Shown one piece after another: positions 19,565 to 62,200 of a stretch of 64,000 bases of DNA. This DNA is from Candidatus Cloacimonas sp. Its GTDB lineage: Bacteria; Cloacimonadota; Cloacimonadia; Cloacimonadales; Cloacimonadaceae. A model generated the notes under the pieces. The model had not been told where the DNA came from and made no database searches. It saw only the letters and a program-made list of their open reading frames with translations. The translations under genes and the position numbers were made by a program. The stretch spans positions 31,922 through 95,921 of the forward strand of contig JBDKSF010000068.1 of assembly GCA_039680785.1 (NCBI GenBank). The letters run 5' to 3'. How positions within the stretch are numbered: the first letter of the stretch is position 1; every line of letters starts with the position of its first letter.

Positions 19565-19780
19565 GGAAGAACGACATCCTCGTCGTTCCCCATACAACCG
19601 AGTTATCCAGTTTCCACTTTATTCTATAAAAGCTTTATTTATGTAGTTTCCGCATTATTACATACAAGCTTGATTTATCCAATTTCCACTTTAATCTATA
19701 CAAGCTTGAGTTATGTAGTTTCCGCATTATTCTATATATGCTTGATAGTTTGTCTGTTGTGGTTGACGATGAAATCAACC
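19565..19780 (+). mobile_element. inverted-REP (REPIN/MITE-like) element with 4 internal 36-bp units
   Basis: left hairpin GAACGACATCCTCGTCGTTC, right hairpin GGTTGACGATGAAATCAACC; A(A/T)GCTT at 19630, 19666, 19702, 19738. Confidence 0.6.
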
Positions 19781-19793
19781 CTCCTTTTTTTGC

Positions 19794-19904
19794 CGGGTTA
19801 AAACCCGTCGCTTATATCTGTCGTCCCGCTGGGACTAATTTATTTGTTTTACATTGCGCCGGGTTAAAAACCCGTCGTTAGTATGTATCGTTCCTAACGG
19901 AACT
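19794..19904 (+). repeat. REP-like family B units (GGGTTAAAACCC with GTCCCGCTGGGAC or GTTCCTAACGGAAC), 2 copies
   Basis: same double-hairpin unit as at 43024-44014. Confidence 0.8.
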
Positions 19905-20134
19905 TAAAATTTGAAATACTCTAAATCCTAAAATCCTTGTTTGTAAAGAAGATAACATCATAATCCTAAAATTCTTGTTTCTAAATCTAAATCCTAAAAT
20001 CCTGGTTTATAAAACTAAATCCCTTAAATCCCAAAAATCCTGTTCATCCCAGGCCTATTATCTTTTTAAATCTGCGTAATCTGCGTGAAACCAAATCTGT
20101 GTAATCTGTGTAATCTGTGAGAGGATATTCCAAA

Positions 20135-20421
20135 GGAAGAACGACATCCTGTCGTTCCACATACAACCGAGTTATCAAGTTTCCACTTTATTCTATAAAA
20201 GCTTTATTTATGTAGTTTCCGCATTATTCCATACAAGCTTTATTTATGTAGTTTCCGCATTATTCCATACAAGCTTGAGTTATCCAGTTTCCGCATTATT
20301 CCATACAAGCTTGAGTTATCAAGTTTCCGCATTATTTTATACAAGCTTGAGTTATGTAGTTTCCGCATTATTCTATATATGCTTGATAGTTTGTCTGTTG
20401 TGGTTGACGAGGACGTCAACC
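20135..20421 (+). mobile_element. inverted-REP element with 6 internal 36-bp units
   Basis: A(A/T)GCTT at 20199, 20235, 20271, 20307, 20343, 20379; right hairpin GGTTGACGAGGACGTCAACC. Confidence 0.6.
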
Positions 20422-20599
20422 CTCCATTATTTTCGCACCTGATAAATATCTTGGTTTATAAAACTAAATCCCTTAAATCCCAAAAATCCTGTTCATCCCA
20501 TACCTATTATCTTTTTGAATCTGCGCCATCTGCGTTATCTGCGTGAAACCAAATCTGTGAGAGCTAAATTTCGGTGTTTTCGGTGGCTACACAATTCCT

Positions 20600-20735
20600 G
20601 CAAACCTTCTTTTTAACCCATCCATAGCTCCTCTTTCTATCCTCTTCCACTCAACCTAAACGAGGGGAGGAGGAGGAGAGGATGAGGCGATGAGGACGGG
20701 TGGTTAATAAGGAAATGGTTGCAAAGATACCATTT
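20600..20735. repeat. pyrimidine-arm/purine-arm long hairpin element (inverted homologue at about 53660-53800)
   Basis: CCTAAACGAGG and GGATGAGGCGA here are reverse complements of CCTCGTTTAGG and TCGCCTCATCC near 53690-53750. Confidence 0.55.
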
Positions 20736-20788
20736 AGAGTCAAAAAATCGCTATTCGGGTAGCTAACCGTTTATCAGTCAATCGCCTA

Positions 20789-21385
20789 TCAGTTATCTTG
20801 ATTTGTCGGCTTTTTATTTTGGTAGAGAGCGATAATATCCTCTTCCAAATCTGCTGGAACCATACCTTTAATGCTTTCTCCGTTAAATATTCGCCTTCGG
20901 ATATCGGTTGCGGAAATAGGGCAGAGTTGAATATCCAAAACGGTAGCTTTCAATTGGTTAATAACTTGTGGCAGAAGTGGATAACCGGGGCGTGGGAGAA
21001 TGATGAAAGAGACATATTGTTGTAAATAGGGATAGTTATACCACTTATGCAGATTGAGCAAATTATCGGATCCGATGATAAAAGTAAAATTCACTTCCGG
21101 ATGCAGGTAAAACATTTTTTTCATCAAATCGGCCGTATAGCCGCTACCTGATTTATCCGCATCGGTTATGGCAAAGTTACTATTACACATAATTGCTTTT
21201 TCTACAAGGGCATAGCGTTGTTCAAAAGGAAGTAGGATGGAATTTTGTTTAAAATGATGATTGCCGCTGGGCGCAAATAAAACGCTATCCGCAGCCCGGA
21301 GCTTCAAAATTTCAGTCGCTATATGCAAATGACCCAGATGGACAGGATCAAAAGTTCCGCCCAAAATAGCAACTAAACCCTGCAC
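20789..21385 (-). CDS. nadD: nicotinate-nucleotide adenylyltransferase
   Basis: 'ILGGTFDPVHLGHL', 'FIIGSDNL', 'ISATDIRRR'. Confidence 0.93.
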   Translation of the reverse strand: MQGLVAILGGTFDPVHLGHLHIATEILKLRAADSVLFAPSGNHHFKQNSILLPFEQRYALVEKAIMCNSNFAITDADKSGSGYTADLMKKMFYLHPEVNFTFIIGSDNLLNLHKWYNYPYLQQYVSFIILPRPGYPLLPQVINQLKATVLDIQLCPISATDIRRRIFNGESIKGMVPADLEEDIIALYQNKKPTNQDN

Positions 21386-21386
21386 T

Positions 21387-22121
21387 TTATTTTTCCAATG
21401 CGCTGAACTTTTTAGCTAATCTTTTTGCCTCTTTGGAATCGGGATAGCGAGTTTGAAGTTTAGTATAGCTTTCTTTGGCTTTTTCGAGGTTCTTTTGATG
21501 GAGATGAAGTTTGGCAGAATAGTAAAGCGCTTGACGGTCAATTTCGTTATAATTTCCCAGGGCGGTGATATCGTCAAAATACATTAGTGCGCTGCTATAG
21601 TCCTTCATTTTATAATATAGATAGCCGGTTAAATAGTCCTTCTCCAATAATTTATACTGGCATTTTTGAATATATTCCAGCGCTTTGCCATAGCGAGAAT
21701 CACTTGGATAGCGATCGATAAAAGTTCTGAATGCCTCAATGCAATTTACTGTTTCGGTTTGATCATATTGGGGCGGAAGGGATTCTTCAAACAGACATTC
21801 GCCTTTGCGGAAATAGGCATCGGAGACATTCTCGTGATCGGGAAAAGAACTGATAAATTGTTCATACCGGGCGCGCGCATCGGCAAATTTATTCATCTTG
21901 AAGTAACAATCGGCTACTTTCATTGTGGCATAAGCAGTCGAAGCAGATTTGCGTTCAAAAGATATCTCTTCATAGATAGTCGCTGCCCGAGAATATTTAC
22001 CTTTGGCATATAGTTCATCGGCATTTTTTAACTTTGCCTCCGTGGAAAGCTGGGTTTTGTTACTGCTGCAAGAAAAGAGGCAAAAAACCACTATCGGGAT
22101 AAGAAGGAAGTATTTACGCAC
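21387..22121 (-). CDS. bamD: outer membrane protein assembly factor BamD (lipoprotein)
   Basis: lipobox LFSC, TPR repeats, 'YDQTET..CIEAFRTFIDRYPSDSRY'. Confidence 0.88.
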   Translation of the reverse strand: MRKYFLLIPIVVFCLFSCSSNKTQLSTEAKLKNADELYAKGKYSRAATIYEEISFERKSASTAYATMKVADCYFKMNKFADARARYEQFISSFPDHENVSDAYFRKGECLFEESLPPQYDQTETVNCIEAFRTFIDRYPSDSRYGKALEYIQKCQYKLLEKDYLTGYLYYKMKDYSSALMYFDDITALGNYNEIDRQALYYSAKLHLHQKNLEKAKESYTKLQTRYPDSKEAKRLAKKFSALEK

Positions 22122-22136
22122 AAAAGATTCCTTTTT

Positions 22137-22712
22137 TTAATCAAAATTCCACAGCAGAAAAACCAGTGAACCAATGGCTGCACCGGCGACGATGGGTTCA
22201 AACCAGCGTTTATGTAAAGAGGAAGTGCTGGAATTTTTCTGCTCCGGTAAAGGTAAATTACAGGTGGAGATTTTTTTTACCTGCAAGGAAGGCAGCTCTA
22301 TCTGCCGAATCTCAAAAATGTAAACAGGATAACGCTGAGTTCGATAGGAAAAAAAACTGCTGTGAGTTTCCTCTTGCCAGATAATGTTCATATTTACTTG
22401 AATCAGCAAAGCATTTGTGATGCCATAAGAGGAAAGGTTAATTGCTTTGCCTTCTTCCACAGAGAAAAATAAATCTCCGGTCTCGGATATATTATAACGC
22501 AGGTCTGCTCCCGCTTCGATCAGAAGAGAACTTATTTTTTCAGTTAAAACGGGATTCCAGTCGCCACAATTAATATCCAGAAAAAGCGGCTGCCCAATCG
22601 TAATTTCGGTTGCTATGTTCTGCGCTATTTTATCAAGAGCGGATAACTCTTGAGAAGATAGAAGGTTCGCACTAAGCAAGAGAACCCAAAAGGGCAGCAG
22701 ATATTTAAACAT
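22137..22712 (-). CDS. hypothetical exported protein with C-terminal TM
   Basis: ATG at 22712 (MFKYLLPFWVLL) avoids overlap with the upstream gene; C-terminal 'WFEPIVAGAAIGSLVFLLW'. Confidence 0.6.
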   Translation of the reverse strand: MFKYLLPFWVLLLSANLLSSQELSALDKIAQNIATEITIGQPLFLDINCGDWNPVLTEKISSLLIEAGADLRYNISETGDLFFSVEEGKAINLSSYGITNALLIQVNMNIIWQEETHSSFFSYRTQRYPVYIFEIRQIELPSLQVKKISTCNLPLPEQKNSSTSSLHKRWFEPIVAGAAIGSLVFLLWNFD

Positions 22713-22713
22713 T

Positions 22714-24126
22714 CTATACGGATTGTAAAAACGCCTTATAAGCCAGATAAGTTGAATATAAATCCGCTTTGGAACTAAGTTCATATAGCGAATGCATACC
22801 GATTAAGCCCACTCCGCAATCCAAAACTTCAGCTCCTAAATTGGCTAAAATATAGGCAATTGTGCCACCGCCACCTTCATCAACTTTGCCCAGTTCTCCT
22901 GATTGCCAGAAAACTCCTGCGCTATTGAAAATCCGGATGACTTTGGCTAAAAATTCGGCATTGGCATCGTTGCAACCATACTTTCCGCTGCTACCGGTAA
23001 ATTTGCTGACGCCAATTCCACAATTGAAAAGGACGGCATTTTGTTTTTCGTGCACATTAGGATAATTGGGATCGATGGCTACAGTTACATCTCCACTTAA
23101 TATCTGACTGTTAATAAATGTCTTACGCAAACTATAACTGCCATTGTCCTCTCCCTTGTAGGCAAGAAGATCGGCAACAAAATCACTAATAAATATGCTA
23201 TTGGCGCCGGTATTACCCTGACTGCCCACTTCTTCTCTATCGGAAAGATAAACGATCATCGTGCGTTTTGGCTTTTCCGCAATGTTATTCAGTAAAGCCA
23301 TCAACGCATTATAGGCACTAATGCGATCGTCCTGTCCGTAGCCAACAATCATTGAATTGTCCAAACCACAATTTCTTGCTTTATAGGCAGGGACTAATTG
23401 CAATTCCGCACTTAAAAAATCGGCTTCGGTAATGCCATATTTTTGATTTAACAGCTTGATGGTATATGCTTTAATTGCTTCTTTTTCTTCATTGCCAGGT
23501 TCCTGCATACCGGAAAAAATGAGGTTCATTTTGCTGGCGTCAATTGCCTCACCCAAGTTCTTGGTATATTGTTCTTTATGTGCCAAATGCGGTAAAAGAT
23601 CAGGAATGATAAAGACCGGTTCATCTTCCTTTTCGCCAATGCAAATATTGAGAATGGAACCATCATTTTTAATGACTACTCCGTGCAAAGACAAAGGTGT
23701 GGAAACCCACTGGTATTTTTTGATGCCACCGTAATAATGAGTCCTCATACAACCCAGGGCACTGTTGCCGTCTTCGTATAAAGGATTTTGTTTAAGATCC
23801 ACTCGGGGGGAATCAATGTGGGCTGCAACCATATTAAATCCCTGAGAGAGAGGTTCCGTTCCCAAATAAGCTATTGCCATTGTTTTGTTGCGAAATACAC
23901 TGTAAACTTTATTGCTTCCTTTTTTGCTTAAGGGAGTAAATTTACTTTTTTGCAAGAGTTCCAAAATACAGGCAATTGTTTCTCTTTCCGTTTTTGCCTT
24001 ATTCAAAAATTGAATATATGGTTCGGCATAAGCCATGGCTTTGTTTTGTTCATCCAGAGATGCTTCTTTCCAAAAGTTTTTGCGCTCATAACTGAGTGCC
24101 TCTTTTTGTGTTTTAGTGTTTTTCAT
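22714..24126 (-). CDS. M18 family aminopeptidase (ApeA-like)
   Basis: 'AHIDSPR', 'YYGGIKKYQW', 'GQDDR', 'DREEVGS', 'GMHSLYE'. Confidence 0.92.
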   Translation of the reverse strand: MKNTKTQKEALSYERKNFWKEASLDEQNKAMAYAEPYIQFLNKAKTERETIACILELLQKSKFTPLSKKGSNKVYSVFRNKTMAIAYLGTEPLSQGFNMVAAHIDSPRVDLKQNPLYEDGNSALGCMRTHYYGGIKKYQWVSTPLSLHGVVIKNDGSILNICIGEKEDEPVFIIPDLLPHLAHKEQYTKNLGEAIDASKMNLIFSGMQEPGNEEKEAIKAYTIKLLNQKYGITEADFLSAELQLVPAYKARNCGLDNSMIVGYGQDDRISAYNALMALLNNIAEKPKRTMIVYLSDREEVGSQGNTGANSIFISDFVADLLAYKGEDNGSYSLRKTFINSQILSGDVTVAIDPNYPNVHEKQNAVLFNCGIGVSKFTGSSGKYGCNDANAEFLAKVIRIFNSAGVFWQSGELGKVDEGGGGTIAYILANLGAEVLDCGVGLIGMHSLYELSSKADLYSTYLAYKAFLQSV

Positions 24127-24142
24127 TGCTACTCCTAAATAT

Positions 24143-24622
24143 TTATTTTATTTCTATTATTTTTAATTGTCTATCGCCGATAGGTGCTTTTACAATGGCA
24201 ACATCGCCCACTTTTTTACTTAATAAAGCTCTTCCAATAGGCGAAACCACGGACACTTCTTGAACTCCTTCCTCGCTGTAATAATTTAATTCATCGGCGC
24301 CTACCAAATGATAACAGGTATTTTCATTCGTGCTGATATCTTCCGCTATGCAATAACTACCGAAACGAACTGTGTCCTTGGGAAATTCACTGGTGTCAAT
24401 TACTTTCAAACAGGCACAGCGACGCCTGAGAAAATCAATTTCACTGTCTATGGCTCGCTGCCTTTCGCGGGCAGCTTTGTATTCTGCATTTTCACTGAGG
24501 TCTCCAAATTCACGAGCAACAGTAATGGCTTTAATAACTTCCGGGCGCTCGGCAAGCAAATCATTTATCCTTTGTTGCAGCCGCTGCATACCCGTTTTGG
24601 TGATAAATTGTGTTAAGTCCAA
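24143..24622 (-). CDS. greA: transcription elongation factor GreA
   Basis: 'AREFGDLSENAEYKAARERQ', 'VSVVSPIGRALL'. Confidence 0.93.
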   Translation of the reverse strand: MDLTQFITKTGMQRLQQRINDLLAERPEVIKAITVAREFGDLSENAEYKAARERQRAIDSEIDFLRRRCACLKVIDTSEFPKDTVRFGSYCIAEDISTNENTCYHLVGADELNYYSEEGVQEVSVVSPIGRALLSKKVGDVAIVKAPIGDRQLKIIEIK

Positions 24623-24626
24623 GAGA

Positions 24627-25439
24627 TTAAACAGCTCCTTTCTTCTTTATTAAAATCCGCTGAGCGGTTGTAGCCGCTTTTTTTAAACGCGCATTGCCAC
24701 TTTTTGTCCAAACCTCAATCGGAGTTTCCAAACCAGGAAAATAATCGGTTATGGACGCACAAAGCAATTCCACAATTTGAGGATCACGGCTAATGCCATA
24801 TTCCTGCCAAATTTTTAAGTAATAATCGGGATTAAGCTTAGCCACCGTTTTCAGCATCGTAATATGAATGGATGTATATTCTCCCAAAGGATATAACCAT
24901 TGATGCACAAAATAATTCATTACTTTGGGAACAAGGTCTTCGCGTTTCTTTACCAGCTTAATCAACAAATTCAACGCTGCTTTATGCAAATTGGGCTCTG
25001 AACTGCTGGCGTAATGAAAAACTTTCTCCAGATATTTATCAGGATATTTGCGCAAAAGAGGCAGCATCACTTTGTCCAAAAGAGCGTTGATATCTGCTTC
25101 GGAAGCCGTTGATAATGTTTCATCCAACAAAGGAAGATACACGGAGGGCTTTTTAGGTAGCAGTTTGCTGATTATCTGTGCAAAAGCCAGCTTTCCATAA
25201 TCTCCTTTCTTGTTCCATAAAGCCCTGTAAAAAGGAATATAGGCGTCATGTTTTTTCCCCAGCTGCTGAACTATGTTACTCGCTACATGATAGATAACCT
25301 CCGCTGGAATTTTGCCGTTTACCCTCTCCGGATAAGCAATAAAGATGATTTCAAAATCATAATCTCCATTCGGCAGCTTATTCTTAAGAAAATCCGCAGT
25401 ATCCATATTCAGCCGTTCTTTCCAGTCAATGGTTAACAT
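24627..25439 (-). CDS. HEAT/armadillo-repeat protein (DNA alkylation repair-like)
   Basis: all-helical pattern, C-terminal 'W.KSGNARLKKAA'; in operon with greA. Confidence 0.45.
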   Translation of the reverse strand: MLTIDWKERLNMDTADFLKNKLPNGDYDFEIIFIAYPERVNGKIPAEVIYHVASNIVQQLGKKHDAYIPFYRALWNKKGDYGKLAFAQIISKLLPKKPSVYLPLLDETLSTASEADINALLDKVMLPLLRKYPDKYLEKVFHYASSSEPNLHKAALNLLIKLVKKREDLVPKVMNYFVHQWLYPLGEYTSIHITMLKTVAKLNPDYYLKIWQEYGISRDPQIVELLCASITDYFPGLETPIEVWTKSGNARLKKAATTAQRILIKKKGAV

Positions 25440-25620
25440 CTGTCTCTCCCAATATCACTATTTTTTCTCTGTGTGGCATTAGCTCTTAAAATGCCCTATC
25501 TTGTCAATAGAAAAAAACAATTGCCCTGCAGTAAAGGGTTTTAACTATCTATAAATTGCTGTATTTGGCTATCAATAATGATTTATCCTAAACTAATACA
25601 GTTGCTTCTTTTTTTTAAAA

Positions 25621-25694
25621 TGGCTGGGATGGAAGGAGTTGAACCCTCACATACGGATCCAGAGTCCGCTGTCCTACCATTAGACGACATCCCA
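25621..25694 (-). tRNA. tRNA-Gln(CTG)
   Basis: reverse complement TGGGATGTCGTCTAATGGTAGGACAGCGGACTCTGGATCCGT...GGTTCAACTCCTTCCATCCCAGCCA; CCA encoded. Confidence 0.95.
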
Positions 25695-25706
25695 TTTTAT
25701 ATTTAC

Positions 25707-25781
25707 TGGCTGGGCAGGAAGGATTCGAACCCTCGTATGGCAGGACCAAAACCTGCTGCCTTACCACTTGGCGACTGCCCA
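25707..25781 (-). tRNA. tRNA-Gln(TTG)
   Basis: anticodon arm GCAGG-TTTTGGT-CCTGC; GGTTCGAATCC T-arm; CCA encoded. Confidence 0.95.
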
Positions 25782-25797
25782 GCAAATATTTTATAAC

Positions 25798-25889
25798 TGG
25801 CGGAGAGGCAGGGATTTGAACCCTGGGTGGGCTTTTGACCCACACACGCTTAGCAGGCGTGCACCTTCAGCCAACTCGGTCACCTCTCC
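25798..25889 (-). tRNA. tRNA-Ser(GCT)
   Basis: anticodon arm CACGC-CTGCTAA-GCGTG; long variable arm; CCA encoded. Confidence 0.95.
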
Positions 25890-25911
25890 CAATTTTTTAT
25901 ATAATTCTATC

Positions 25912-25997
25912 TGGCGGAGGATGAGGGATTCGAACCCCCATGGGCATAACCCGGCGGTTTTCAAGACCGCTGCCTTACCTGTTAGGACTAATCCTCC
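25912..25997 (-). tRNA. tRNA-Ser(TGA)
   Basis: anticodon arm GCGGT-CTTGAAA-ACCGC; long variable arm; CCA encoded. Confidence 0.95.
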
Positions 25998-26308
25998 CTT
26001 TGTTATTTTTTCCTTCAAAATTATCGAGGCATTTCTGTCAAGAGCTTTCTGCGGTAAGACCCCTCACAGATTGCAAGGATCTCATAGATTTTGTTTCCCG
26101 CAGATTGCGCTGATTTGGTTGCACGCAGATTACGCAGATTCAAAAAGATAATAGGCCTGGGATGAACAGGATTTTTGGGATTTAAGGGATTTAGTTTTAT
26201 ACACTTAGGATTTTAGGATTGAGATTTAGAAACAAGGATTTAAGGATTTAAGGATTTAGAGGATTTGGTTATATAAACAAGAATATTAAATCGTTGGGAA
26301 TAATGGAG

Positions 26309-26415
26309 GGTTGACTTCCTCGTCAACCACAACAAACAAACTATCAAGCTATCATAGAATAATGCGGAAACTGGATAACTCGGTTGTATGGGGAACGACA
26401 AGATGTCGTTCTTCC
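26309..26415 (-). mobile_element. inverted-REP element, 1 internal unit (107 bp)
   Basis: GGTTGACTTCCTCGTCAACC ... GGAACGACAAGATGTCGTTCTTCC. Confidence 0.6.
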
Positions 26416-26479
26416 TTTAATATTCTATCACAGATTTGGTTATATAAACAAGAATATTGACCCGTTGGGAATAATGGAG

Positions 26480-26623
26480 GGTTGACGTCCTCGTCAACCA
26501 CAACAAACAAACTATCAGGCAATTATAGAATAACGCGGAAGCTGCATAAATCAAGCTTGTATAGAATAAAATGGAAACTTGATAATTCGGTTGTCAGGGG
26601 AACGACGAGGACGTCGTTCCTCC
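26480..26623 (-). mobile_element. inverted-REP element, 2 internal units (144 bp)
   Basis: GGTTGACGTCCTCGTCAACC ... GGAACGACGAGGACGTCGTTCCTCC. Confidence 0.6.
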
Positions 26624-26978
26624 TTTAATATTCTCTCACAGATCTATTTTCGGTGGCTTCGGTGTCCTCGGTGGCTTAAAATAAAAATCCCTTAAATCCC
26701 CAAAATCCTGTTCATCCCAGACCTATTATTTTCACTTCGCCCTGAGCTCTCTGCCCTCTGCAATATAAAATCCTGTTCATCCCAGACCTATTATCCTCTT
26801 ATATCTATGAGAATTGTGGAATCTGTGAGAGGTCTTATTTTTTTCGGTGTTCTCGGTTTTTTCCGTGTTCTCGGTGTAAAATAATCCCTTAAATCATTAT
26901 CATCTAATAAAACAGTTTGTCTGGAACGAATTCTGCATTATCTTATCATAAAAAACATTGCTATGAAAGGATAGTTTA

Positions 26979-28796
26979 ATGCAAAGAATTTTTAAGTTAG
27001 GATTGGCGTTATGTCTGTTTCTAATCCTGTCATCTCTATTTGCTCAAAGTGTTAAATTCTCGTTATCTCCCGCGGTTTTGCAGCCCGGGGAAAAAGGTGT
27101 TATTAAAGCCACTTTAGTTATTCCCGAAGGGAAAAAGCAGACCGTGAACCCCAAAAATCCAGAATATTTTTATTTGGAAGCAAATCATCCCGATCTTATT
27201 TTTGGTAAAGTTATTTATCCTCAGCCGACTATGATTGTTTCTGCAGAGGAATGGAATTATCATCCCAAAGTTACTTTAACATTGCCTTTTACGGTAAAAA
27301 ACACGGCAAAACCGGGTGACAAACAAATCGAGGTCTTGCTAAGTTATAATTTATGTTATGAAACAGGAATGTGCGATCCCCCTGAAGAAACTTCTAAAAC
27401 CCTTTCTTTTCAAATTGCGGCAAGCGAAAATGCAGTAACAACAGAATCCGAAATTGCAGATACAATAAGTAAAAATGAGCCAAGCCAGGCAACTCCTGTT
27501 TCTGAAAAACAAAAACCAGTAGAAAATCCCCCGACAAAGCAATCCCTGGGCGAAATCCTGAAGTATATTCTGTTTGCTTTTTTAGGAGGCATAATTTTGA
27601 ACATCACCCCCTGCGTGCTGCCGATTTTGCCTATCAGGATAATGAGCATAATGAATCAGGCACAGAAAGACAGAACTAAAGTGTTGAATCATACTTTGGT
27701 TTATGCTTTGGGAGTGCTTATTTCCTTTGCCGTGATGGCTGGAATATTCATCGCTTTACAAAAAGCGGGTGAATCGGTAGGTTGGGGCTTGCAAAATCAA
27801 AACCCCGGTTTCGTAGTAACCCTGATGGCAATTGTTTTTGTATTTGCTTTGTCGCTTTTAGGTGTTTTTGAGATAACCGTCCCCGGAATGAATACTGCCA
27901 ACAAAGCAACCGCCAAAGGTGGATATAGCGGTTCTTTTTTTGGAGGTATTTTTGCCTTTTTGATGGCTATTTCTTGTACCGGACCTTTTTTAGGAGCCGC
28001 TTTACCTTTTGCTTTAGCTATGCCACCTGTTTTAATGCTGATTTTCTTCCTCACCATCGGACTGGGTTTTGCGTTTCCTTTTTTGCTGATCGGCTTTTTC
28101 CCCAAGGCATTGAAAATTATTCCCAAACCTGGCAACTGGATGATCATATTCAAAGAAGTGATGGGCTTTGTTTTGCTCTTTATCGTTTATACGCAATTAA
28201 AAACATTGCTGCTTTTAACCGATGGCGAATATTTGATGCAAGTGCTCTGGTTTTTACTTATTCTCGGTTTTGCCAGTTGGCTATATGGCTGTTTTGTAAA
28301 AGTGGAGAACAGCAAACTGATTCAATGGCTGTTTACGCTTATTTCTCTGGCGCTGATTATTTTTGCCGCGGCTACTTATCTTCCGCTTAAAGAGACGAAC
28401 AAAACAGAAATTCAGGCAAACAAAAGTGAACTTATTCCTGCTCCCAATGCCCCAGAGGGTTGGTATGTATTTTCGGAAGATGTTCTAAACAAGGCACTCA
28501 AAGAAAATAAAGCGGTTTTTCTTGACATCGGGGCTGCCTGGTGTAAAAATTGTATGACGAATGAAAAAACCGTCCTTTTTACAGATACGATGATGCAGGA
28601 ATTTAAGCAGAAAAATGTTTTATTGCTCCGGGGAGATTTTACCAAAAAAGATGAGACGCTGCTTGCTTGGATAAAAAAACACGGAAGAGCGGGTGTCCCT
28701 TTCAGTGCATTATACATTCCCGGGCAAGAACCCTATATTTTTGGCGAACTGCTTTCCAAAGAGGATATTTTTAACGCCCTTAACAAAATTCAGTAG
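26979..28796 (+). CDS. dsbD: protein-disulfide reductase DsbD (alpha, beta and gamma domains)
   Basis: alpha CYETGMC; TM-domain cysteines in 'LNITPCVLPILP' and 'ISCTGPFL'; C-terminal thioredoxin AAWCKNC. Confidence 0.85.
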   Translation: MQRIFKLGLALCLFLILSSLFAQSVKFSLSPAVLQPGEKGVIKATLVIPEGKKQTVNPKNPEYFYLEANHPDLIFGKVIYPQPTMIVSAEEWNYHPKVTLTLPFTVKNTAKPGDKQIEVLLSYNLCYETGMCDPPEETSKTLSFQIAASENAVTTESEIADTISKNEPSQATPVSEKQKPVENPPTKQSLGEILKYILFAFLGGIILNITPCVLPILPIRIMSIMNQAQKDRTKVLNHTLVYALGVLISFAVMAGIFIALQKAGESVGWGLQNQNPGFVVTLMAIVFVFALSLLGVFEITVPGMNTANKATAKGGYSGSFFGGIFAFLMAISCTGPFLGAALPFALAMPPVLMLIFFLTIGLGFAFPFLLIGFFPKALKIIPKPGNWMIIFKEVMGFVLLFIVYTQLKTLLLLTDGEYLMQVLWFLLILGFASWLYGCFVKVENSKLIQWLFTLISLALIIFAAATYLPLKETNKTEIQANKSELIPAPNAPEGWYVFSEDVLNKALKENKAVFLDIGAAWCKNCMTNEKTVLFTDTMMQEFKQKNVLLLRGDFTKKDETLLAWIKKHGRAGVPFSALYIPGQEPYIFGELLSKEDIFNALNKIQ

Positions 28797-28817
28797 GTAA
28801 ACTGGCAAAGGAAGATA

Positions 28818-30427: not shown

Positions 30428-30509
30428 CATATTTTCACGCAGATTTCGCAGATGGAATAGGTATGGGATGAACAGGATTATGGGGATTTAGAGGATTAAA
30501 AATAATGTG

Positions 30510-30770
30510 TAGACGGCGGACACCGTTCCTCCACAAAAAAGTGGATAGTTTTAGGTAGCGGCGGACACCGTTCCTCAGCAAAAAAGTGGATAGTTTTAGG
30601 TAGCGGCGGACACCGTTCCGCCGAAAAAAAGTGAAAAAGAGAAAAGGTTGAAAAGTGAAACCCGGGGATAGTTTTAGGTAGCGGCGGACGCCGTTCCGCC
30701 GAAAAAAAGTGAAACCCGGGGATAATTTTAGGTAGCGGCGGACGCCGTTCCGCCGAAAAAAAGTGAAACC
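30510..30770. repeat. REP-like family C array (GGCGGAC(A/G)CCGTTCC), 5 copies
   Basis: copies at 30515, 30560, 30605, 30683 and 30737; flank GATAGTTTTAGGTAGC. Confidence 0.88.
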
Positions 30771-30855
30771 CATGGGATATAAAATATCCTGAACTCCTTA
30801 TTTCTAAACCTATATCAGTGAAGTCAGTGAAGTCAATGAGAAAATAATATAAACA

Positions 30856-32310: not shown

Positions 32311-32430
32311 AAAAATATATTTCCCGCAGATTGCGCAGATTTATTTAGTAGTTAGGATTCCTGAGGGAAGGGCAAATATATTTTTTGTCCCTTTCCCCTA
32401 ATCAGTTAATATATATAAAAAGACGAGGAT

Positions 32431-33777: not shown

Positions 33778-33852
33778 GTAGATCGCCCACCGCGTAAACC
33801 CATAATCAGCGTGACTTTTACTGCTTCGTAGAAAGTCCTTCCTTGATAGTTA

Positions 33853-33913
33853 TGGTGGAAATGCAATGGTGCTATTCGGGTTTTTGCCGAATACCGCCAC
33901 CGTATTTCCACCA
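33853..33913. terminator. long imperfect hairpin between convergent operons
   Basis: TGGTGGAAAT...TATTCGG-GTTTTTG-CCGAATA...ATTTCCACCA. Confidence 0.5.
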
Positions 33914-33946
33914 TTTATTATAAGCGCCAAGTTGGCTATAACTATC

Positions 33947-36736: not shown

Positions 36737-36841
36737 TGTTTATTCCTTTTTTTTACCCAAATTCCGATAACGCAAAGGCAATGCAGAGGTCTATATAGAA
36801 TCTGCAATTATGCCGGAATTACCGGTTTTTAGGAAAAGCAG

Positions 36842-37444
36842 CTATTTCATCAATCCCAACACATCAATTACCAGAAATTGAATTCTGCCAATCAATAATG
36901 AGATACGAGCCATAACTGTTAAACCAAAAGAAGCGCCGAAACCAATCATCATATACCATTTTCCCAATTCCACAAATTTGCCATAAGCACCTGTGTGCGC
37001 TTTGGAGAAAAAGAAATATAACAAAACGGCAATTGTGCCAATCAGGATCAGAACAAGATTAACATTTTCCAGAGGAACCATCGCTTGACGCATCTGAACT
37101 AAAATTCCGGCATGAATTCCCATCGGAATGCTGAATCCGATTCCAATCATCGAAAAGGCAATTGGATAACGGGAAAGCCAACCCAGTTTACGAGAAAAAC
37201 GAAATAGATATAGTATTCCCAAAAGGCAGGGGAGAATAAGGACAAAATTATGCTTCAGAATAATCGGCTGCCAAACATAAGGAATAAATATTCTTTCATA
37301 AGTGAACACCAGCGAATATCCCAAAGAAATTCCTACCAGCAGTTGTTCCGCCATTCTATATAAAGGATTTTCTTTGTAAAGGAAGGAGAAAATGCACAGC
37401 GTAAAAAACGCAGCTACCAGATTACTTATTAATTCAAAACTCAT
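36842..37444 (-). CDS. conserved polytopic membrane protein of unknown function
   Basis: about 6 hydrophobic segments; 'TLCIFSFLYKENPLYRMAEQLLVG', 'GKWYMMIGFGASFG'. Confidence 0.75.
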   Translation of the reverse strand: MSFELISNLVAAFFTLCIFSFLYKENPLYRMAEQLLVGISLGYSLVFTYERIFIPYVWQPIILKHNFVLILPCLLGILYLFRFSRKLGWLSRYPIAFSMIGIGFSIPMGIHAGILVQMRQAMVPLENVNLVLILIGTIAVLLYFFFSKAHTGAYGKFVELGKWYMMIGFGASFGLTVMARISLLIGRIQFLVIDVLGLMK

Positions 37445-37461
37445 TTTTCCTCTCCCTTTCT

Positions 37462-38676
37462 TTACTTTTCTACCGTTTTGGCTCTTTGAATGAAGTAACC
37501 AATATTACCCAAAAGAATGAAGACAATGATCATTATATGGGCAACGGACTGTGCGTTCATTCCAATTCTGGCTACTTTGAATTTATAATCAATATTATAG
37601 GTAAGCTTATTCAGTTCCCGATAAGCATATTCGCCCATCTGATTTCTCTGCTCCGGGGTTATTTTGCTAACATCAATCACGATTTTATCTTTTTCCTGTT
37701 CCGTCAGGGAATCAAAAATAGCTTTTTGCTCAGGATATTTGGCTACGAAGGCGGCATAATCGGCAGGTGTAAATTCAGCTTTGGTCTGAGTGGTAATGTT
37801 AATTAGTTTTTTCGTGCTTTCATCATTGAGCACTTCTTTGCCGAAAGGACGGCCCGGAATGATTTTGTTGCCTTCTGCATCCATTTTTACTCTATAATCA
37901 ACTTTCGGATCACGATAAGCGGCAAAAACATCCACTAATTTTTCATATTCGGCTGCACCTTTTAATCCAGTAAGCATACCAATCAATTGACCTGATTGTA
38001 AATAGGGATATTCATCGGCAGCCATAACGGCAGTAACTCCCAAAGCTACATTCACTCCAAATTTGGGACGAGCATAATAAATCCAATAAGTTCCAGCCGT
38101 GCTTCCGGAAAATTCCACTACCAGGTTCATTTCGTTGTAATTTGTTATGCCTTTCATAATTGGCAAACTTTCCAGTTTTCTACCTTCGGCGTCGGTATTT
38201 ACGGCATTGGCAATATTATCTCCCATTCCCAAAACCAAAGCCATGGGCTGGGGCTTGAAACCAAAATTACAATAATCCACTCCGCTTTTCACATCGGGAT
38301 ATTCTTCTTTCACGGAATTGAAAGCATAGTCAATAATAGGTGCACCCGAAGTTAAAAAAGTGAGAGCGAAGACCTTGATATTGCGTTCAAAACAATGTCT
38401 GATTATGGCAATTTCCATTGGGTAAAGTTCCGGCATCGTAGAAGCATCATGTAAAAAACTTAATAACACGGCTCTATCTTCTCTGCCGGCAAAAGAATCA
38501 ATCATCTGATACAGATTTTCCGTAGGCGGAGAAGTTACATTATCCGAATTATAAGGAATCATTAAGGGAATGATAATTGCCAGAGCCACAACAATGTAGA
38601 TCCAGCGTCGGTCTAAATTTTGCATTCTTTCAAAAAAGTTCATCCTGTTTTCTCCCCTTTCCTTAATCCGTTCCAC
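37462..38676 (-). CDS. membrane-anchored protein of unknown function (N- and C-terminal TM; possibly a distant DUF6754 relative)
   Basis: 'DRRWIYIVVALAIIIP', 'ELYPM', 'GQLIGMLTGLKGAAEYEKL', 'MNAQSVAHIMIIVFILLGNIGYF'. Confidence 0.7.
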   Translation of the reverse strand: MERIKERGENRMNFFERMQNLDRRWIYIVVALAIIIPLMIPYNSDNVTSPPTENLYQMIDSFAGREDRAVLLSFLHDASTMPELYPMEIAIIRHCFERNIKVFALTFLTSGAPIIDYAFNSVKEEYPDVKSGVDYCNFGFKPQPMALVLGMGDNIANAVNTDAEGRKLESLPIMKGITNYNEMNLVVEFSGSTAGTYWIYYARPKFGVNVALGVTAVMAADEYPYLQSGQLIGMLTGLKGAAEYEKLVDVFAAYRDPKVDYRVKMDAEGNKIIPGRPFGKEVLNDESTKKLINITTQTKAEFTPADYAAFVAKYPEQKAIFDSLTEQEKDKIVIDVSKITPEQRNQMGEYAYRELNKLTYNIDYKFKVARIGMNAQSVAHIMIIVFILLGNIGYFIQRAKTVEK

Positions 38677-39292
38677 CCAAATAGGAACGTTCTATGCCCA
38701 AAAGTATTTTTAGGGAAGTTGCCACACCTCCAAGACCTACGCCAATGGCTATTCCACGCTTGGAAGCCAAATTGGGAACATCCAATATCCACTGAGAGAT
38801 TATAGGTAGGTTTTTATAAATTTTCACTCCCAAAGGCACTTGAGCCAGCATCACTACAATGGCGGCAATCAACAAAACCGTCGCTTCTGCAGAACGAGCT
38901 CTAAATGCTTTATAAGCTGCGGATGCCATATAAAATGCCAAAAGCGAAAACATCGTAGAGCTCATTGGCATTTGCATATTTTCAAATATCCACATCAACA
39001 TACTACCTTTTTGCGTTCCACCGATAAAACCGGCAAGCGATGTTATGATGAATCCACCAAAAAAGAAATAGCTATATTGCCATTTAGGAGCACGCCTTTT
39101 TATTTTACTGCTATGCATCATACACAAACTTATCACTCCCAAAAGAGCCGCCCAAGGCGCTGAAGCATAAGCCCAAGGAAGGTAAAACTTGTTGTAGAAA
39201 TCATCCTGTAAAAGTTTGTGGGGACTAAAGGCATATAACACAAAGATTATGCCCCCCACGATTACCATAATTAAAGGAATTGTTTTCTTCAT
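38663..39292 (-). CDS. conserved polytopic membrane protein of unknown function
   Basis: about 6 TM; 'STMFSLLAFYMASAAYKAFRARSAEATVLL', 'KRGIAIGVGLG...LLGIERSYLG'. Confidence 0.75.
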   Translation of the reverse strand: MKKTIPLIMVIVGGIIFVLYAFSPHKLLQDDFYNKFYLPWAYASAPWAALLGVISLCMMHSSKIKRRAPKWQYSYFFFGGFIITSLAGFIGGTQKGSMLMWIFENMQMPMSSTMFSLLAFYMASAAYKAFRARSAEATVLLIAAIVVMLAQVPLGVKIYKNLPIISQWILDVPNLASKRGIAIGVGLGGVATSLKILLGIERSYLGGTD

Positions 39293-39304
39293 TTAGGACC
39301 TCAT

Positions 39305-42232
39305 TTATTTAATAGGAAATATTTCAGTTAAACCCGTCAATTGAAAACTGGAAAGCACCGCTCCGGCAATTACAAAAGCAAAAATGAGGAATTTATAATA
39401 GTCCTGTGCCTTCAAAGTTCCCAGCTGCATCGGTTCACGATTTAAATAGGAAGAAGCGGCATAAAGCTCTTCTCCGATTAAAGTATAATCACAAGTAGTA
39501 ATAAAAAAGGGGATTTGAGTAACGGCATCGGTTCCAGCTATCTGATATGAACCCAAATAGTTACCGGTTTCCGTCATCAACAATGCCTCGGCTGCAAAAT
39601 AACCCATAAAGAAATTAGTTGCCGACCGCTCCCGAATCATTATTCCATTCACACCTGCCACATAGGCAAATTGAACATCGGTTAAAAAAAATACATTGTT
39701 TTTATCAAAACTATCCGGACGGCCTACAGAGTAATGTGCATCTCTAACAATTTCTTGAACGATGGGCATCACTATGTAATTATAGACGGGAACAATTAGT
39801 TTTATGTCATATTCTGCCGCTTTACGAGCCACCAAACTTAAAATTCCCATCGAGGCAATAGTGGCCACATCACTCAAAGAACCATTTCCCATCATATACA
39901 TCATTGGGCGTCCCATTTCTGTAGCTCTGCCGACAGCCGTGTCAATTTCTTCCAAACCGGCTATGGGACGAATGTATAAATTCTTGCCCCGTCTGGCTAA
40001 ATTGATAAAGACCACTACCATTATCCCGAAGATGATCATTGCTACCAAAGTAGTGTATTTATTAGTATCAAACACATTGGAGACGGGTTTCATATATTTT
40101 ATTTCGTCCCCGTCTTTCAACATATCGCTTTCGGTAAAAAGTCCTTTCCCATCAGTGCGCACAACTTGATAACTTGTCCAGCGATTATAGTCCTCTCTAA
40201 TTTTGGCTATATAGCGCATGCGGCTTTTTCTGCCGGCTATCTTGTTGGCGGAGAGCAGATTTTCATTTTTGCCATAGGCATTCAGCTGTTTTTGAATCTG
40301 TTCAATGTTTTGATTTATTGGTTCAGCCATTGCGGGATCAGTTAACATTGCTTTTTGGGTTTGCAGCTCGGAAAGTTGTTTGGTAAGTTCTTTTACTTTT
40401 TCTTCCGCTTCTTTTTTGCCTAAATCGGGGAAAATATTAGTTTCAATCCGGGTTTCATTCTTTTTATCATAAACCAGATCAAGCTTGGGCGAAAGCAAAG
40501 CGAGAGGAGTGGTTTTATCTCCATTTTTTAATTTGCGTGCCTGGCGTTCTCCGTTGATGACAGTAATGAAAGAATCGCCTTTGGCATAGCAAAATCCCTC
40601 TACCGGTTTCTGAATCATACTGGCATAAGGAATGGTTACATCCAAAGAATTATCATAAGATGTATTGCGTTTCACCAAAGTTAACTGCGGAGAAGACACA
40701 CTTTTCCTATACACCACATTGTCTATCTTGGAAACATTTTTGCCATTTCGGTAAAGTGCCTTGGTGGGCATAATCGCCAGCATTTGAGGATCATATTCCA
40801 AATCCTGTTCCAGATAGTAATCCTCCGGAATTTCCGGTTTGCCTTTCATAGCAATTTTCACACGGAATCCCTTTTTATAATTATAACCATCGGGCACTTG
40901 CAAAATTACGCTATTATCTTGATAAAATTCGTTCAGACGGACAAAAGGAGTGGTTTCCCCTTTCTTGTAAAATTCAAAATAGATGTTATCCACTTTTTGG
41001 GTTTCGGTTTGATTTAACTGATAGTTTACTCTAAATTTGGTAAAATTGCTATTTAGCGCAGTCGTTTTCACCACAAAACAGATGGGACTATCCCAAACCA
41101 CCGTTAAACGATCACCTTTGTCATTGGGTTTGTCTTCCATCGTAAATATGGGTTTGGCGGGAAGATTGTAACTGTTTTTCAACCGTGGCTTCGTTAGAGC
41201 GGAAAAACTGCTATAACCATCAGCATCTATTAATTCCAAGGCGTAACGAGAATTTTTGTATATACTAAGGGAATCTTCCCGAGGAATGGAGTATTTACAG
41301 TAATTCTTCAAAGAACCATAGCCAACTAATCCCTGATTCAATACCGCTGTCTTTTCCCGTAAAAGCCCAGGATTATTGCGCATAATATTCCACATCGAAT
41401 CTGCCAACGCCGGAATTTGATGAACGCGATATTGAACTATGTCCGACCGAAAAATAGGCAATTCCCATTCAAATCTCAGCTCTCTACTATCTTCCAAAAC
41501 TACACTGTAAAATTCAGATGCGGGTTCAGGCGGATTTGGATAAGGGATTCCAAAAGATATATTAGCTGGTTTTTGATATTGACGCCTTTCATTCACCGCC
41601 ACTACAGTATAATAATATTTTTCACCCGGATTTAAAAAACAGAGCACCGTTTGCTGATTATTCTTCAAACCAGCATAGGTCTCACCTTCTTTAGGAAAAG
41701 AACTTTCCGCTTTTGATTGCGGCAATTTGTCGAGAGTCACTTTTTGGCTTCTGTAATAGTAATTGTTCTTTTCACTAACGGAAAGCAGAGAATATTTTCC
41801 GGACATATCAGCTAAAAACGCAATGTCCCGCGGCATTTTTTCGTAAAGAGGACTGTTCTTGCCTTGCTGCTTCTCCTTTTTTAAATGGCGAGGAGAGGAT
41901 ATATCAAAAAATTCGCTGCCAGAATTGTCGTAATAATACATTCGCTCAGAAGCGACTCCGGTCTTCACATTCACGGGAATGGCTTCTAAAAAGAATAATT
42001 GATCAGGACTTACTCCCCGGTAAACTCGATATTCAATTATGCGTTTGTTTCGTTCCAGCGGTTTCCAGGAAAGCATTAATCCACTACCATCATCTGCAGG
42101 AATATCTTCAACCCGGAAGTCATCTACAACATATTTTTCCGTCTCTGGCTGTTTCTGCGCTATAATTACCGTTCCTACTATGATAAAAATAAACAGCAGA
42201 AGAAGGATTAGGCGACTTCTATTCAAATTCAT
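39305..42232 (-). CDS. large membrane protein, extracytoplasmic Fn3-like region plus C-terminal DUF6754-type domain (paralogue 1)
   Basis: 'DIPADDGSGLMLSWKP...YRVYRG'; 'YIRPIAGLEEIDTAVGRATEMGRP...QIAGTDAVTQIPFFITTCDYTLIGEELYAASSY'. Confidence 0.7.
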   Translation of the reverse strand: MNLNRSRLILLLLFIFIIVGTVIIAQKQPETEKYVVDDFRVEDIPADDGSGLMLSWKPLERNKRIIEYRVYRGVSPDQLFFLEAIPVNVKTGVASERMYYYDNSGSEFFDISSPRHLKKEKQQGKNSPLYEKMPRDIAFLADMSGKYSLLSVSEKNNYYYRSQKVTLDKLPQSKAESSFPKEGETYAGLKNNQQTVLCFLNPGEKYYYTVVAVNERRQYQKPANISFGIPYPNPPEPASEFYSVVLEDSRELRFEWELPIFRSDIVQYRVHQIPALADSMWNIMRNNPGLLREKTAVLNQGLVGYGSLKNYCKYSIPREDSLSIYKNSRYALELIDADGYSSFSALTKPRLKNSYNLPAKPIFTMEDKPNDKGDRLTVVWDSPICFVVKTTALNSNFTKFRVNYQLNQTETQKVDNIYFEFYKKGETTPFVRLNEFYQDNSVILQVPDGYNYKKGFRVKIAMKGKPEIPEDYYLEQDLEYDPQMLAIMPTKALYRNGKNVSKIDNVVYRKSVSSPQLTLVKRNTSYDNSLDVTIPYASMIQKPVEGFCYAKGDSFITVINGERQARKLKNGDKTTPLALLSPKLDLVYDKKNETRIETNIFPDLGKKEAEEKVKELTKQLSELQTQKAMLTDPAMAEPINQNIEQIQKQLNAYGKNENLLSANKIAGRKSRMRYIAKIREDYNRWTSYQVVRTDGKGLFTESDMLKDGDEIKYMKPVSNVFDTNKYTTLVAMIIFGIMVVVFINLARRGKNLYIRPIAGLEEIDTAVGRATEMGRPMMYMMGNGSLSDVATIASMGILSLVARKAAEYDIKLIVPVYNYIVMPIVQEIVRDAHYSVGRPDSFDKNNVFFLTDVQFAYVAGVNGIMIRERSATNFFMGYFAAEALLMTETGNYLGSYQIAGTDAVTQIPFFITTCDYTLIGEELYAASSYLNREPMQLGTLKAQDYYKFLIFAFVIAGAVLSSFQLTGLTEIFPIK

Positions 42233-42354
42233 AAGCTTGGTCTCCTATTTGTTATAATGAACAGTTAATTTTCCATTTCATTCCAACCACAAAAATAGCC
42301 CGATTATGTCAATCTCTTTTTTTCCTTACGGATCATTCCTGTGCAGATGAAGCG

Positions 42355-42400
42355 CATCCCGAATGCATCCCGTATCGCCATTCGGGATGAGTTCGGGATG
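42355..42400. repeat. nested palindrome upstream of the DUF6754 operon
   Basis: CATCCCGAA-TG-CATCCCG-tatcgccatt-CGGGATG-AG-TTCGGGATG. Confidence 0.6.
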
Positions 42401-43023
42401 CTTTGCGGCAGCAATCAAGCAGCGAGTAAGAATGGCTAAAGATAATAGTATTTTGTCTGCTGAGAATGGTGATATCGCTTTGGTGCATAATGAGTTGCAG
42501 ACAAAAATAAATATTGCACAGAGCTGAAAATAATTACTGGCTTATAAATATTTGCTATTCTTATGTATAAACCCTTTTTTAGCGACCTTACTATTGGCAT
42601 CTAACTATTTGCCATTTATATGGATATGTCACATTTTAGCAACTACATTTCTTGCAATAGACCAATAGCTACATTTAGACATCAAACAAAAACATTTTCT
42701 GCTCTACATTTTTTTTGATAGTGCACTAAATTGTGATATGATTGGTATAATATTATATTGTCAATAATCTGCTTTATATCTTAAGAGTATTGAATATATT
42801 TTGATTGAACTGACTGATCTAATTCTGAACAAGCAAACTGTATTTTTGGAAGAGCAACTTTTTCAATTTTTTCTGGATGGAATTAATCTATGCAATGAGT
42901 TGAAGTTCAATAGAAAACTACAGTCCATAATTGAACAAAATATGTTCACTGATAAATGCCTATATCCACGATAATTATTTTTATCCAATAATTTTACAGA
43001 ATATATAATAACTCATTAGGAAA

Positions 43024-43530
43024 GAAATAGTTCCGTTAGGAACGCGGGTTTTAAACCAGGCGAATGAAATGACAGTATAATATGTTATCTTATAACTGGA
43101 GAAATAGTTCCGTTAGGAACGACAGGTATTAACGACGGGTTTTTAACCCGGCGAATGAAATGACAGTATAATATGCTAATTTACAACTGGATAGATAGTT
43201 CCGTTAGGAGCGACAGGTATTAACGACGGGTTTTAACCCGGCGAATGTAATGACAGGATAATATGTTATCTTACTACTGGAGAAATAGTTCCGTTAGGAA
43301 CGACAGGTATTAACGACTGGTTTTGAACCCGGCGTAGGAAAAATAAATAAAAAAGTCCCAGCGGGACGACAGATGATAACTACGGGTTTTAACTCGGTGC
43401 ATTAAATGACAGTATAATATGCTATCTTATAACTGGAGAAACAGTTCCGTTAGGAACGACAGGTATTAACGACGGGTTTTAACCCGGCGTAGGAAAAATA
43501 AATAAAAAAGTCCCAGCGGGACGACAGATG
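43024..43530 (-). repeat. REP-like family B tandem array (about 90-bp period; 5 GTTCCGTTAGG units plus 2 GTCCCAGCGGGAC units)
   Basis: AGTTCCGTTAGGA(A/G)CG recurs near 43029, 43106, 43197, 43287 and 43443. Confidence 0.88.
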
Positions 43531-43645
43531 ATGATTGCAGCGTTAATATTGGATAATTACTATCTATTAAAATAGTCCTTTAAATCCTTGTTTCTAAAAC
43601 TCAATCTGTGAAATCAGTGCAATCTGTGAGAGATTATAATCCAAA

Positions 43646-43752
43646 GGAAGAACGAAGTCCTCTTCGTTCCCCATACAGCCAAATTCTGAAGTTTCCGCTT
43701 ATTATATGAAAGCTTGATAGTTTGCTTGTTGTGGTTGACGAAGAAGTCAACC
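43646..43752 (+). mobile_element. inverted-REP element, 1 internal unit (107 bp)
   Basis: GGAAGAACGAAGTCCTCTTCGTTCCCC ... GGTTGACGAAGAAGTCAACC. Confidence 0.55.
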
Positions 43753-43769
43753 CTACTGTATTTTTGCAA

Positions 43770-44014: not shown

Positions 44015-44049
44015 TTTTAGCTAACATCTTTATATTCGAGATGTTTACA

Positions 44050-44250: not shown

Positions 44251-44269
44251 TCGCTATAAATGTTATGCT

Positions 44270-61771: not shown

Positions 61772-61790
61772 AGCTACGCCTTTTACCAAT

Positions 61791-62196: not shown

Positions 62197-62200
62197 TTAC

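Follow-up and report, generated by a model that had tools for sequence, protein, structure and literature searches.

A probable REPIN-type intergenic element with a tandemly expanding 36-bp module in a Candidatus Cloacimonas genome

A short intergenic repeat occurs five times in a 64,000-nt stretch of a Candidatus Cloacimonas sp. genome, here called the window, and in 72 complete copies in the genome as a whole (labelled G000; 2,068,119 bp in 122 contigs, 38.4% G+C, 99.2% complete). Its architecture is A-(B)n-C: two end modules, A and C, each contain a hairpin and enclose a 36-nt module B that is present in one to six tandem units. The element is probably a non-coding intergenic repeat of the REPIN type, i.e., a pair of inverted repetitive extragenic palindromic (REP) sequences with a spacer, that was spread by a lineage of REP-associated tyrosine transposases (RAYTs) and whose B module expands by slippage or recombination. 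Five congeners (the sister species G012, G001, G005, G019, and G020) and G094, which belongs to another genus, are referred to by these labels.

The modules were located with profiles built from nine one-unit copies, with which the genome was searched using nhmmer. Module A (37 nt, AAAGGAAGAACGACGTCCTCGTCGTTCCCCTnACAACC) carries the hairpin GAACGACG-TCCT-CGTCGTTC, module B (36 nt, GAGTTATnnAGTTTCCGCnTTATTnTATnAnAGCTT) forms the middle part, and module C (47 nt, GATAGTTTGTTTGTTGTGGTTGACGAGGACGTCAACCCTCCnTTATT) carries the hairpin GGTTGACG-AGGA-CGTCAACC. An earlier note on this stretch had named GACGTCCTCGTC and GACGAGGACGTC as the inverted hairpin cores, and these are as it described them. The genome-wide count of copies and units that the same note recommended returns a family of 82 A, 80 B, and 88 C modules, always in the order A-B-C. 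The modules chain into 72 complete elements, with one unit in 62 cases, two units in five, four units in two, and six units in one; two elements are incomplete and round to n = 0, one of them being truncated at a contig end. All eight multi-unit elements can be cut into whole 36-nt units in exact register, which bears out the length steps of 36 bp proposed before. A pattern search gave 56 real matches, compared to none for the reversed-pattern control. We note that 25 of the 244 contig ends have a member of the family within 300 bp and that the shortest contig has 1544 bp; this assembly therefore probably gives too low a number of copies and of long arrays.

The ends of the element are sharp. 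Across 58 end-anchored copies the information content climbs at AAAGGAAG from at most 0.6 bits, the level of the flank, to over 1.5 bits and declines once CCCTCCnTTATT is passed; the unit therefore has defined ends. It is found in at least six unrelated upstream contexts and in several unrelated downstream ones.

All five copies that the earlier note had reported for the window are present, and a search with the A, B, and C profiles finds no sixth copy within the 64 kb. In the following, copy ends are those set by the nhmmer profiles. Copy 1 (19562-19787, + strand) is an A-(B)4-C element with periods of 36 and 72 in Tandem Repeats Finder and a recent paralogue of copy 2 (20132-20431, +), which is A-(B)6-C. 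The latter consists of an A-type REP hairpin (GAACGAC-ATCCT-GTCGTTC, 20139-20157, +) with covariation in its stem, an array of six 36-nt units with the consensus GAGTTATGTAGTTTCCGCATTATTCCATACAAGCTT (20169-20384, +; delimited by Tandem Repeats Finder and in-register cutting), and a C-type REP hairpin (GGTTGACG-AGGA-CGTCAACC, 20402-20421, +). Copy 3 (26299-26418, − strand) has a single unit and is a tandem paralogue of copy 4 (26470-26626, −), whose two units, A-(B)2-C, follow from the profiles and in-register cutting. Copy 5 (43643-43762, +) again has one unit, and its A stem shows a compensated change (GAACGAAG...CTTCGTTC). Tandem Repeats Finder assigns the window arrays a period of 36 bp with 3.8 and 6.1 copies. 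The window thus holds the largest array of the genome, with six units, as well as one of its two four-unit arrays.

Module A aligns with the reverse complement of module C over about 40 nt (AAAGGARG..GACGTCCTCGTC..CC..ACAAC). Given this homology the element reads as an inverted doublet of two diverged but related hairpin types with a spacer, which is the layout of a REPIN. On either strand, a single long hairpin is predicted for the one-unit consensus (z-scores of -5.2 and -6.0; none of 200 shuffles is as stable). Covariation nevertheless favors two local hairpins over such a long A:C pairing: the C stem has C-G as its top pair in 20 copies but G-C in 19, double changes from A-T to G-C and from C-G to A-T are seen in the A stem, and the long pairing leaves the top position of the C stem uncompensated (CG 24, CC 15), all counts treating as independent a set of copies that are related and not phylogenetically independent. 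Both variants of the C stem are present in five species and are therefore old. In the six-unit copy 2 the two terminal hairpins are the only structures found in both the minimum free energy and the centroid folds of single-stranded DNA, and the B array is without stable structure. The motif GGA[AG]G lies 5' of both hairpins.

The number of B units can be followed in two pairs of paralogues. Copies 1 and 2 are 570 bp apart and near-identical from the immediate upstream flank through the end of C, the homology ending right after CCCTCCwTTwTTT, and they differ by one clean indel of 72 nt, corresponding to two units. The earlier note had described the units as reshuffled between copies; this needs correcting, the unit order being conserved in this pair. 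Units B2 and B3 of copy 2 are identical 36-mers, a pattern that indicates a recent tandem duplication. Likewise, copies 3 and 4 have a common 3' flank and are separated by a clean 36-nt indel. Since both paralogous pairs differ only by clean indels of 72 and 36 nt, respectively, unit number is, on this comparison, a property that changes in place. A two-unit B-B query finds no tandem B in the five congeners, and the expansion of B appears to be specific to the species of G000 among those searched.

The full A-B-C element is found in G000 and in G005 (21 copies, 74-88% identity). G012 has single A-B-C copies, for example an orthologue of the copy on contig C103 of G000, and the four further congeners contain mainly hairpins with other spacers and periods. 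C hairpins number 68 in G000, 208 in G012, 182 in G001, 32 in G020, nine in G005, and one in G019; two occur in G094 and none in the other 91 genomes of the family that were searched, and the reversed-pattern control for these counts gave no matches. An exact pattern scan of the whole collection returned one outside record, the metagenome-assembled 'Cloacimonetes bacterium UBA5835'. Hairpin arrays in G012 and G001 have periods of 33, 66, 110, and 138 bp.

The one-unit copies of G000 have a mean pairwise identity of 79%, and judged from their sequences the copies are old. Several of them are orthologous between species: C103 with G012, C71 and C93 with G005, and the solo A hairpin of C83 with G019. 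A further example is the gap upstream of a conserved gene (start ATGGAYCAAAA..), which contains a C'-A' doublet in all five species, each time elaborated differently. G019 has the minimal form, a C'-6 nt-A' doublet, G005 has one element, G000 has 2.3 tandem elements, and G012 and G001 have hairpin arrays. Whole elements are also repeated in tandem in G000 (C115:38117-38427, C47:1959-2224, and C93). A few pairs of copies with 93-97% identity have unrelated flanks. The gap that holds copy 5 measures 1.96 kb in G000 versus about 100-170 bp in G019 and G012. At the loci of copies 1 and 2, of copies 3 and 4, and at C25:31299 no empty site can be defined, as every one of the four or five relatives examined has the two flanks at distant positions. 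Because both flanks are separated in this way, the repeat clusters at 19240-20788 and 25998-26978 of the window and at G000:C25:31299 coincide with rearrangement breakpoints. In metagenomes, 22 loci with the MBL-fold gene that lies upstream reach at best about 82% DNA identity, contain none of the modules A, B, or C, and lose synteny just after the gene; they therefore represent other species and are uninformative on strain polymorphism.

A transposase gene flanked by these hairpins is found in G012. The gene encodes a RAYT of 214 aa (92.9 bits on NF047646, cut-off 80) with the HUH motif HIH and the tyrosine in YIMNNP, whose sole match in the PDB is 4ER8, the Escherichia coli TnpArep (E 2.9e-8). 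One flank contains five C cores (GTTGACGAGGACGTCAAC) and about three A-type hairpins; the opposite flank has at least three A cores (AACGACGTCCTCGTCGTT), with a 100-N scaffold gap among them, as well as eleven C cores at a period of 33 bp. By this arrangement the locus is a REPtron as defined in PMC6006769. Among 60 other genomes searched, a sample taken from across the family, the best match of its RAYT has 48% identity. In the family, seven further RAYT homologues each have hairpins of their own on either side; for the homologue in G030 these are a pair of hairpin types with inverted loops, which is the same design as that of A and C.

G000 itself has a single Y1 transposase gene (C77:15808-16473, 222 aa), which scores 80.7 bits on NF047646, 'REP-associated tyrosine transposase', and thus just exceeds the cut-off of 80. 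A different repeat, GTACCGGCGCTCGCTATAGCGCCG...AGGCGGAACGGCGTCCGCC, borders the gene on either side, and the contig is devoid of A and C modules. The repeat belongs to a second REP family with the hairpins GGCGCTCGCTATAGCGCC and GGCGGAACGGCGTCCGCC (about 62 and 20 matches genome-wide, respectively) in units of about 66-70 bp, which also forms the window arrays at 30509-30779 and 52487-52690. The C77 gene and these hairpins apparently constitute a complete REPtron. Cross-mobilisation of the A-B-C element by the C77 RAYT was considered and rejected: the string GAACGnCGTCC that its repeat shares with module A lies in a different register of stem and loop and is regarded as a chance match. The earlier note had advised a search for a RAYT gene flanked by the same hairpins, and the outcome is divided, with such a gene present in a congener and other hairpins around the only RAYT of G000.

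Apart from these genes, a 192-aa Y1-transposase-like gene occurs with 88-98% identity across four sister species (G005:C43, G012:C53, G001:C9, and G019:C1:633447-633809). Of the four hairpin cores tested, none occurs in its vicinity (about 1.5 kb), and no copy of the gene was found in G000. It has the appearance of a domesticated paralogue that is passed on vertically.

A mechanism can be outlined as follows. The element pairs an A-type with a C-type REP hairpin, which are related, stand in inverted orientation around a spacer, and may be compared with Y and Z2 of E. coli; its hairpins belong to a family common to a small subclade of one genus of the Cloacimonadota. The cognate HUH/tyrosine transposase (RAYT, TnpA-REP) would survive in G012 as a REPtron, and we infer that copies were spread by a RAYT lineage of the G012 type acting on single-stranded hairpins. 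The family in G000 may then be an orphan, slowly decaying population, or it may depend on a RAYT that failed to assemble. Module B, as part of the spacer, would gain and lose units in situ through replication slippage or unequal recombination of tandem units, independently of transposition, as is the case for the boxB module of streptococcal BOX elements. Finally, the element would be copied together with its flanks when segments are duplicated locally or when neighbouring repeat modules recombine; much of the recent multiplication in G000 is local duplication of this kind. The more specific proposal, a REP/RAYT system with a BOX-like internal minisatellite whose REPINs persist, duplicate locally, and change length after loss of the cognate RAYT, is offered tentatively, as a possibility short of an even chance. 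If true, G000 would contain a natural orphan REPIN population that also seeds rearrangements and kilobase-long, repeat-filled gaps in a genome of 2 Mb.

Several observations weigh against spread by such a RAYT lineage. No RAYT with A or C modules at its flanks was found in G000, where a short RAYT island between arrays could have dropped from the assembly, given a smallest contig of 1544 bp. The C77 RAYT, with its other hairpins, has only 33% identity to the RAYT of G012. G001, with its 182 C hairpins, and G005, with its 21 full elements, lack a RAYT of the G012 type and have RAYT-like genes with other flanks or none. The motif GT[AG]G is lacking 5' of the hairpins, as it also is from some known subclasses of REPs (PMC6006769). 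The closest pairs of copies are mostly neighbours or have a common flank. A comparison of filled and empty sites, as suggested in the earlier note, did give one clean difference in presence, a 209-bp block at G000:C58:6847 that G012 lacks. The block is larger than the element, however: besides A-B-C it takes in a left module of 40 nt and the two-hairpin module that lies downstream, and the composite recurs at three or four other loci of G000. Transposition, excision, or enzyme activity was not observed. The description of the element as REPIN-like in the earlier note therefore stands with respect to the inverted hairpin doublet, its spacer, and the compensated stems, whereas mobilisation in trans within G000 is not supported.

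The genomic setting bears on the alternatives. According to crude calls of open reading frames (ORFs) made for this analysis, all 72 complete elements are intergenic; two seeming overlaps involve ORFs of about 120 aa inside repeat-rich gaps that are probably spurious. The gaps holding elements have a median length of 1154 bp versus 18 bp for the genome, and those at 19240-20788, 25998-26978, and 42233-44269 of the window consist of 1-2 kb of pure repeat mosaic. In total, G000 has 148 gaps of more than 500 bp, amounting to 128 kb. A coding function was rejected, as a consistent open frame is absent and the best frame is open in at most 22 of the 58 copies.

The foremost alternative to a RAYT-spread REPIN is a mosaic in the manner of bacterial interspersed mosaic elements (BIMEs), which is not transposed, whose hairpins serve the host as structural modules (for example terminators, mRNA stabilisers, or protein binding sites) and stay at fixed sites, and which is multiplied solely by local tandem or segmental duplication and by ectopic recombination or gene conversion among adjacent repeat modules. 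We consider this rather unlikely, although a number of findings fit it. The elements nearly always occur in the same larger context, in which a 9-mer array that ends in ATCTGTGAGAG lies upstream and a CGGGTTAAAACCCG / GTCCCGCTGGGAC module lies downstream, and the block that is present in G000 and absent from G012 takes in such neighbouring modules. Orthologous copies (C103, C71, C93, and C83) and the C'-A' doublet at one site in all five species are likewise as expected of a resident mosaic. A T-rich run follows each outward-facing hairpin, the C hairpin of copy 1 scores as terminator-like, and gaps between convergent genes are over-represented (14 of the 48 classifiable elements versus 8% of all gaps). 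Conversely, the orientation of the elements relative to genes is mixed, a sharp-ended unit recurs in unrelated contexts on both sides, and some pairs with 93-97% identity have no flank in common. The flanking of the G012 RAYT by these very hairpins, moreover, is the classic mark of RAYT-dependent REPs.

A second alternative to the REPIN reading is an ordinary miniature inverted-repeat transposable element (MITE) of the BOX type that would stem from, and be mobilised by, an insertion sequence with a DDE-type transposase and the same terminal inverted repeats. Imperfect terminal inverted repeats do exist (AAAGGAAG... and ...CCTCCTTT), the element is small, AT-rich inside, and folds back on itself, and the modular A-Bn-C layout resembles that of BOX (PMC3049150). 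On the other hand, the module search finds no A...C pair enclosing a gene-sized insert in G000, no target-site duplication or other direct repeat is seen across the 58 anchored pairs of flanks, and the copies are diverse rather than near-identical. Each end is a hairpin complementary to itself and shows compensated changes, which is what substrates of HUH enzymes should look like; an origin as a MITE is quite improbable. Least probable of all is that the copies are small RNA genes or cis-regulatory RNA elements with the upstream GAGAATAT as a promoter -10 box: a TAnAAT-like motif does lie about 10 nt upstream of many copies and the RNA fold is strong, but the motif also precedes unrelated modules and gene starts, orientation is mixed, unit number varies, no frame is consistently open, and no Rfam match was found at gathering thresholds (whole window) or at E<=1 (window 19300-20600, copies 1 and 2).

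The repeats that accompany the element are of several kinds. A 9-bp tandem repeat, (AATCTGYGY)n ending ATCTGTGAGAG, lies 5' of about 40 A-B-C copies and has about 90 sites genome-wide, four of which are in the window (19499-19560, 20069-20130, 26086-26140, and 43602-43628). It is also found 5' of other repeat modules and of some gene starts or ends, and is therefore a separate intergenic module. A third two-hairpin module, CGCCGGGTTAAAACCCGTCG ... GTCGTCCCGCTGGGAC, has about 60 copies and lies 3' of most A-B-C elements; in the window it occurs at 19791-19836 and in arrays at 43041-43532 and 43765-44002. In a 1.3-kb search this module gave a sub-threshold Rfam match to RF01687, Acido-Lenti-1 RNA (25.7 bits, gathering threshold 37, E 0.002). 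Further tandem arrays of the window lie at 61784-62018 and 62199-62296 (34 bp x 6.9 and 8 bp x 12.2, respectively), and a cluster of four tRNA genes at 25624-25997 (− strand) adjoins copies 3 and 4. A 164-aa ORF between two inverted copies (G000:C10:15407-15901) was rejected as a gene, since it is the translation of a tandem repeat of about 99 bp (...FSRGLRHHRYDCVAHKGLFWGG...). Sequence related to this repeat is present at about 44150-44270 of the window; the repeat is dispersed and could be mis-annotated as a gene. Nucleases of the PDDEXK_3/GxxExxY and DUF559 types were not found in G000.

The findings extend REP/RAYT biology to the uncultured lineage Cloacimonadota and describe a hybrid design that joins REPIN ends to an expandable, BOX-like core. 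The sister species offer a natural comparison, in which one species has a RAYT and more than 200 hairpins and others lack such a RAYT and have from nine to about 180 hairpins. Decay of REPIN populations after loss of the RAYT, as claimed in the literature (bioRxiv 2021.07.10.451892), could be put to the test with this contrast. For genome projects, the family limits assembly, as it lies near 25 of 244 contig ends and at synteny breakpoints. The 36-bp arrays could serve as strain markers, as boxB arrays do in typing by MLVA, an analysis of variable tandem-repeat numbers at multiple loci.

The closest described architecture is that of the pneumococcal BOX element (Martin 1992; Croucher 2011, PMC3049150), and the closest described system is REPIN/RAYT. 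The earlier note knew of no equivalent for an element with an expandable internal array, a view that does not hold: the BOX elements of Streptococcus pneumoniae and S. suis have the structure boxA-(boxB)n-boxC with a strain-variable number of boxB modules, longer arrays being more variable between strains (PMC3049150). The likeness is one of architecture only. It comprises an end module A, a variable tandem B, and an end module C; in both cases the ends pair together with B contributing little to the fold, copies differ in length, and chance often leaves reading frames open. For BOX, target-site duplications have been reported and mobilisation by ISSpn2 has been proposed (PMC3049150), whereas the present element lacks target duplications and has ends that are REP hairpins linked to an HUH transposase. 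BOX belongs to another host phylum and the present element is restricted to a few species within a single genus; sequence homology between the two is therefore not expected.

BIMEs are the second point of reference. In BIME-2 of E. coli, Y and Z2 REPs form tandem arrays with fixed linker motifs, so that the whole REP pair repeats. The hairpin arrays of G012 and G001 are similar in having two REP subtypes in alternating orientation, together with other short motifs, in tandem intergenic arrays. In G000, in contrast, it is mostly the non-palindromic internal unit of 36 bp that repeats, and the two REPs stay single.

With REPINs and REP-RAYT systems (PMC3116915, Bertels & Rainey 2011; PMC3337134; PMC2817692, Nunvar 2010; PMC6006769, Quentin 2018) the element shares short, imperfect, extragenic palindromes, inverted REPs around a spacer of about 64 nt, and a whole element that folds back on itself. 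As in those systems, there are two related REP subtypes, the copies are diverse and in part vertically inherited, tandem clusters occur (for example G000:C115:38117-38427), and a single-copy RAYT is flanked by the same REPs, here in the congener G012. The RAYT survey PMC6006769 does not mention Cloacimonadota. Differences are that GGARG rather than GT[AG]G stands beside each hairpin and that the cognate RAYT is missing from the assembly of G000. Variation of the spacer is in itself familiar: 11 spacings are reported for GI REPINs in SBW25 and tandem REPINs occur (PMC3337134), and tandem REPINs as well as the BIMEs of E. coli have been described (PMC3337134, PMC6006769). A limited literature search found no report of a REPIN with a repeating spacer module, and it is in this respect that the present element differs from described REPINs: its spacer contains a 36-bp module that is tandemly amplified one to six times.

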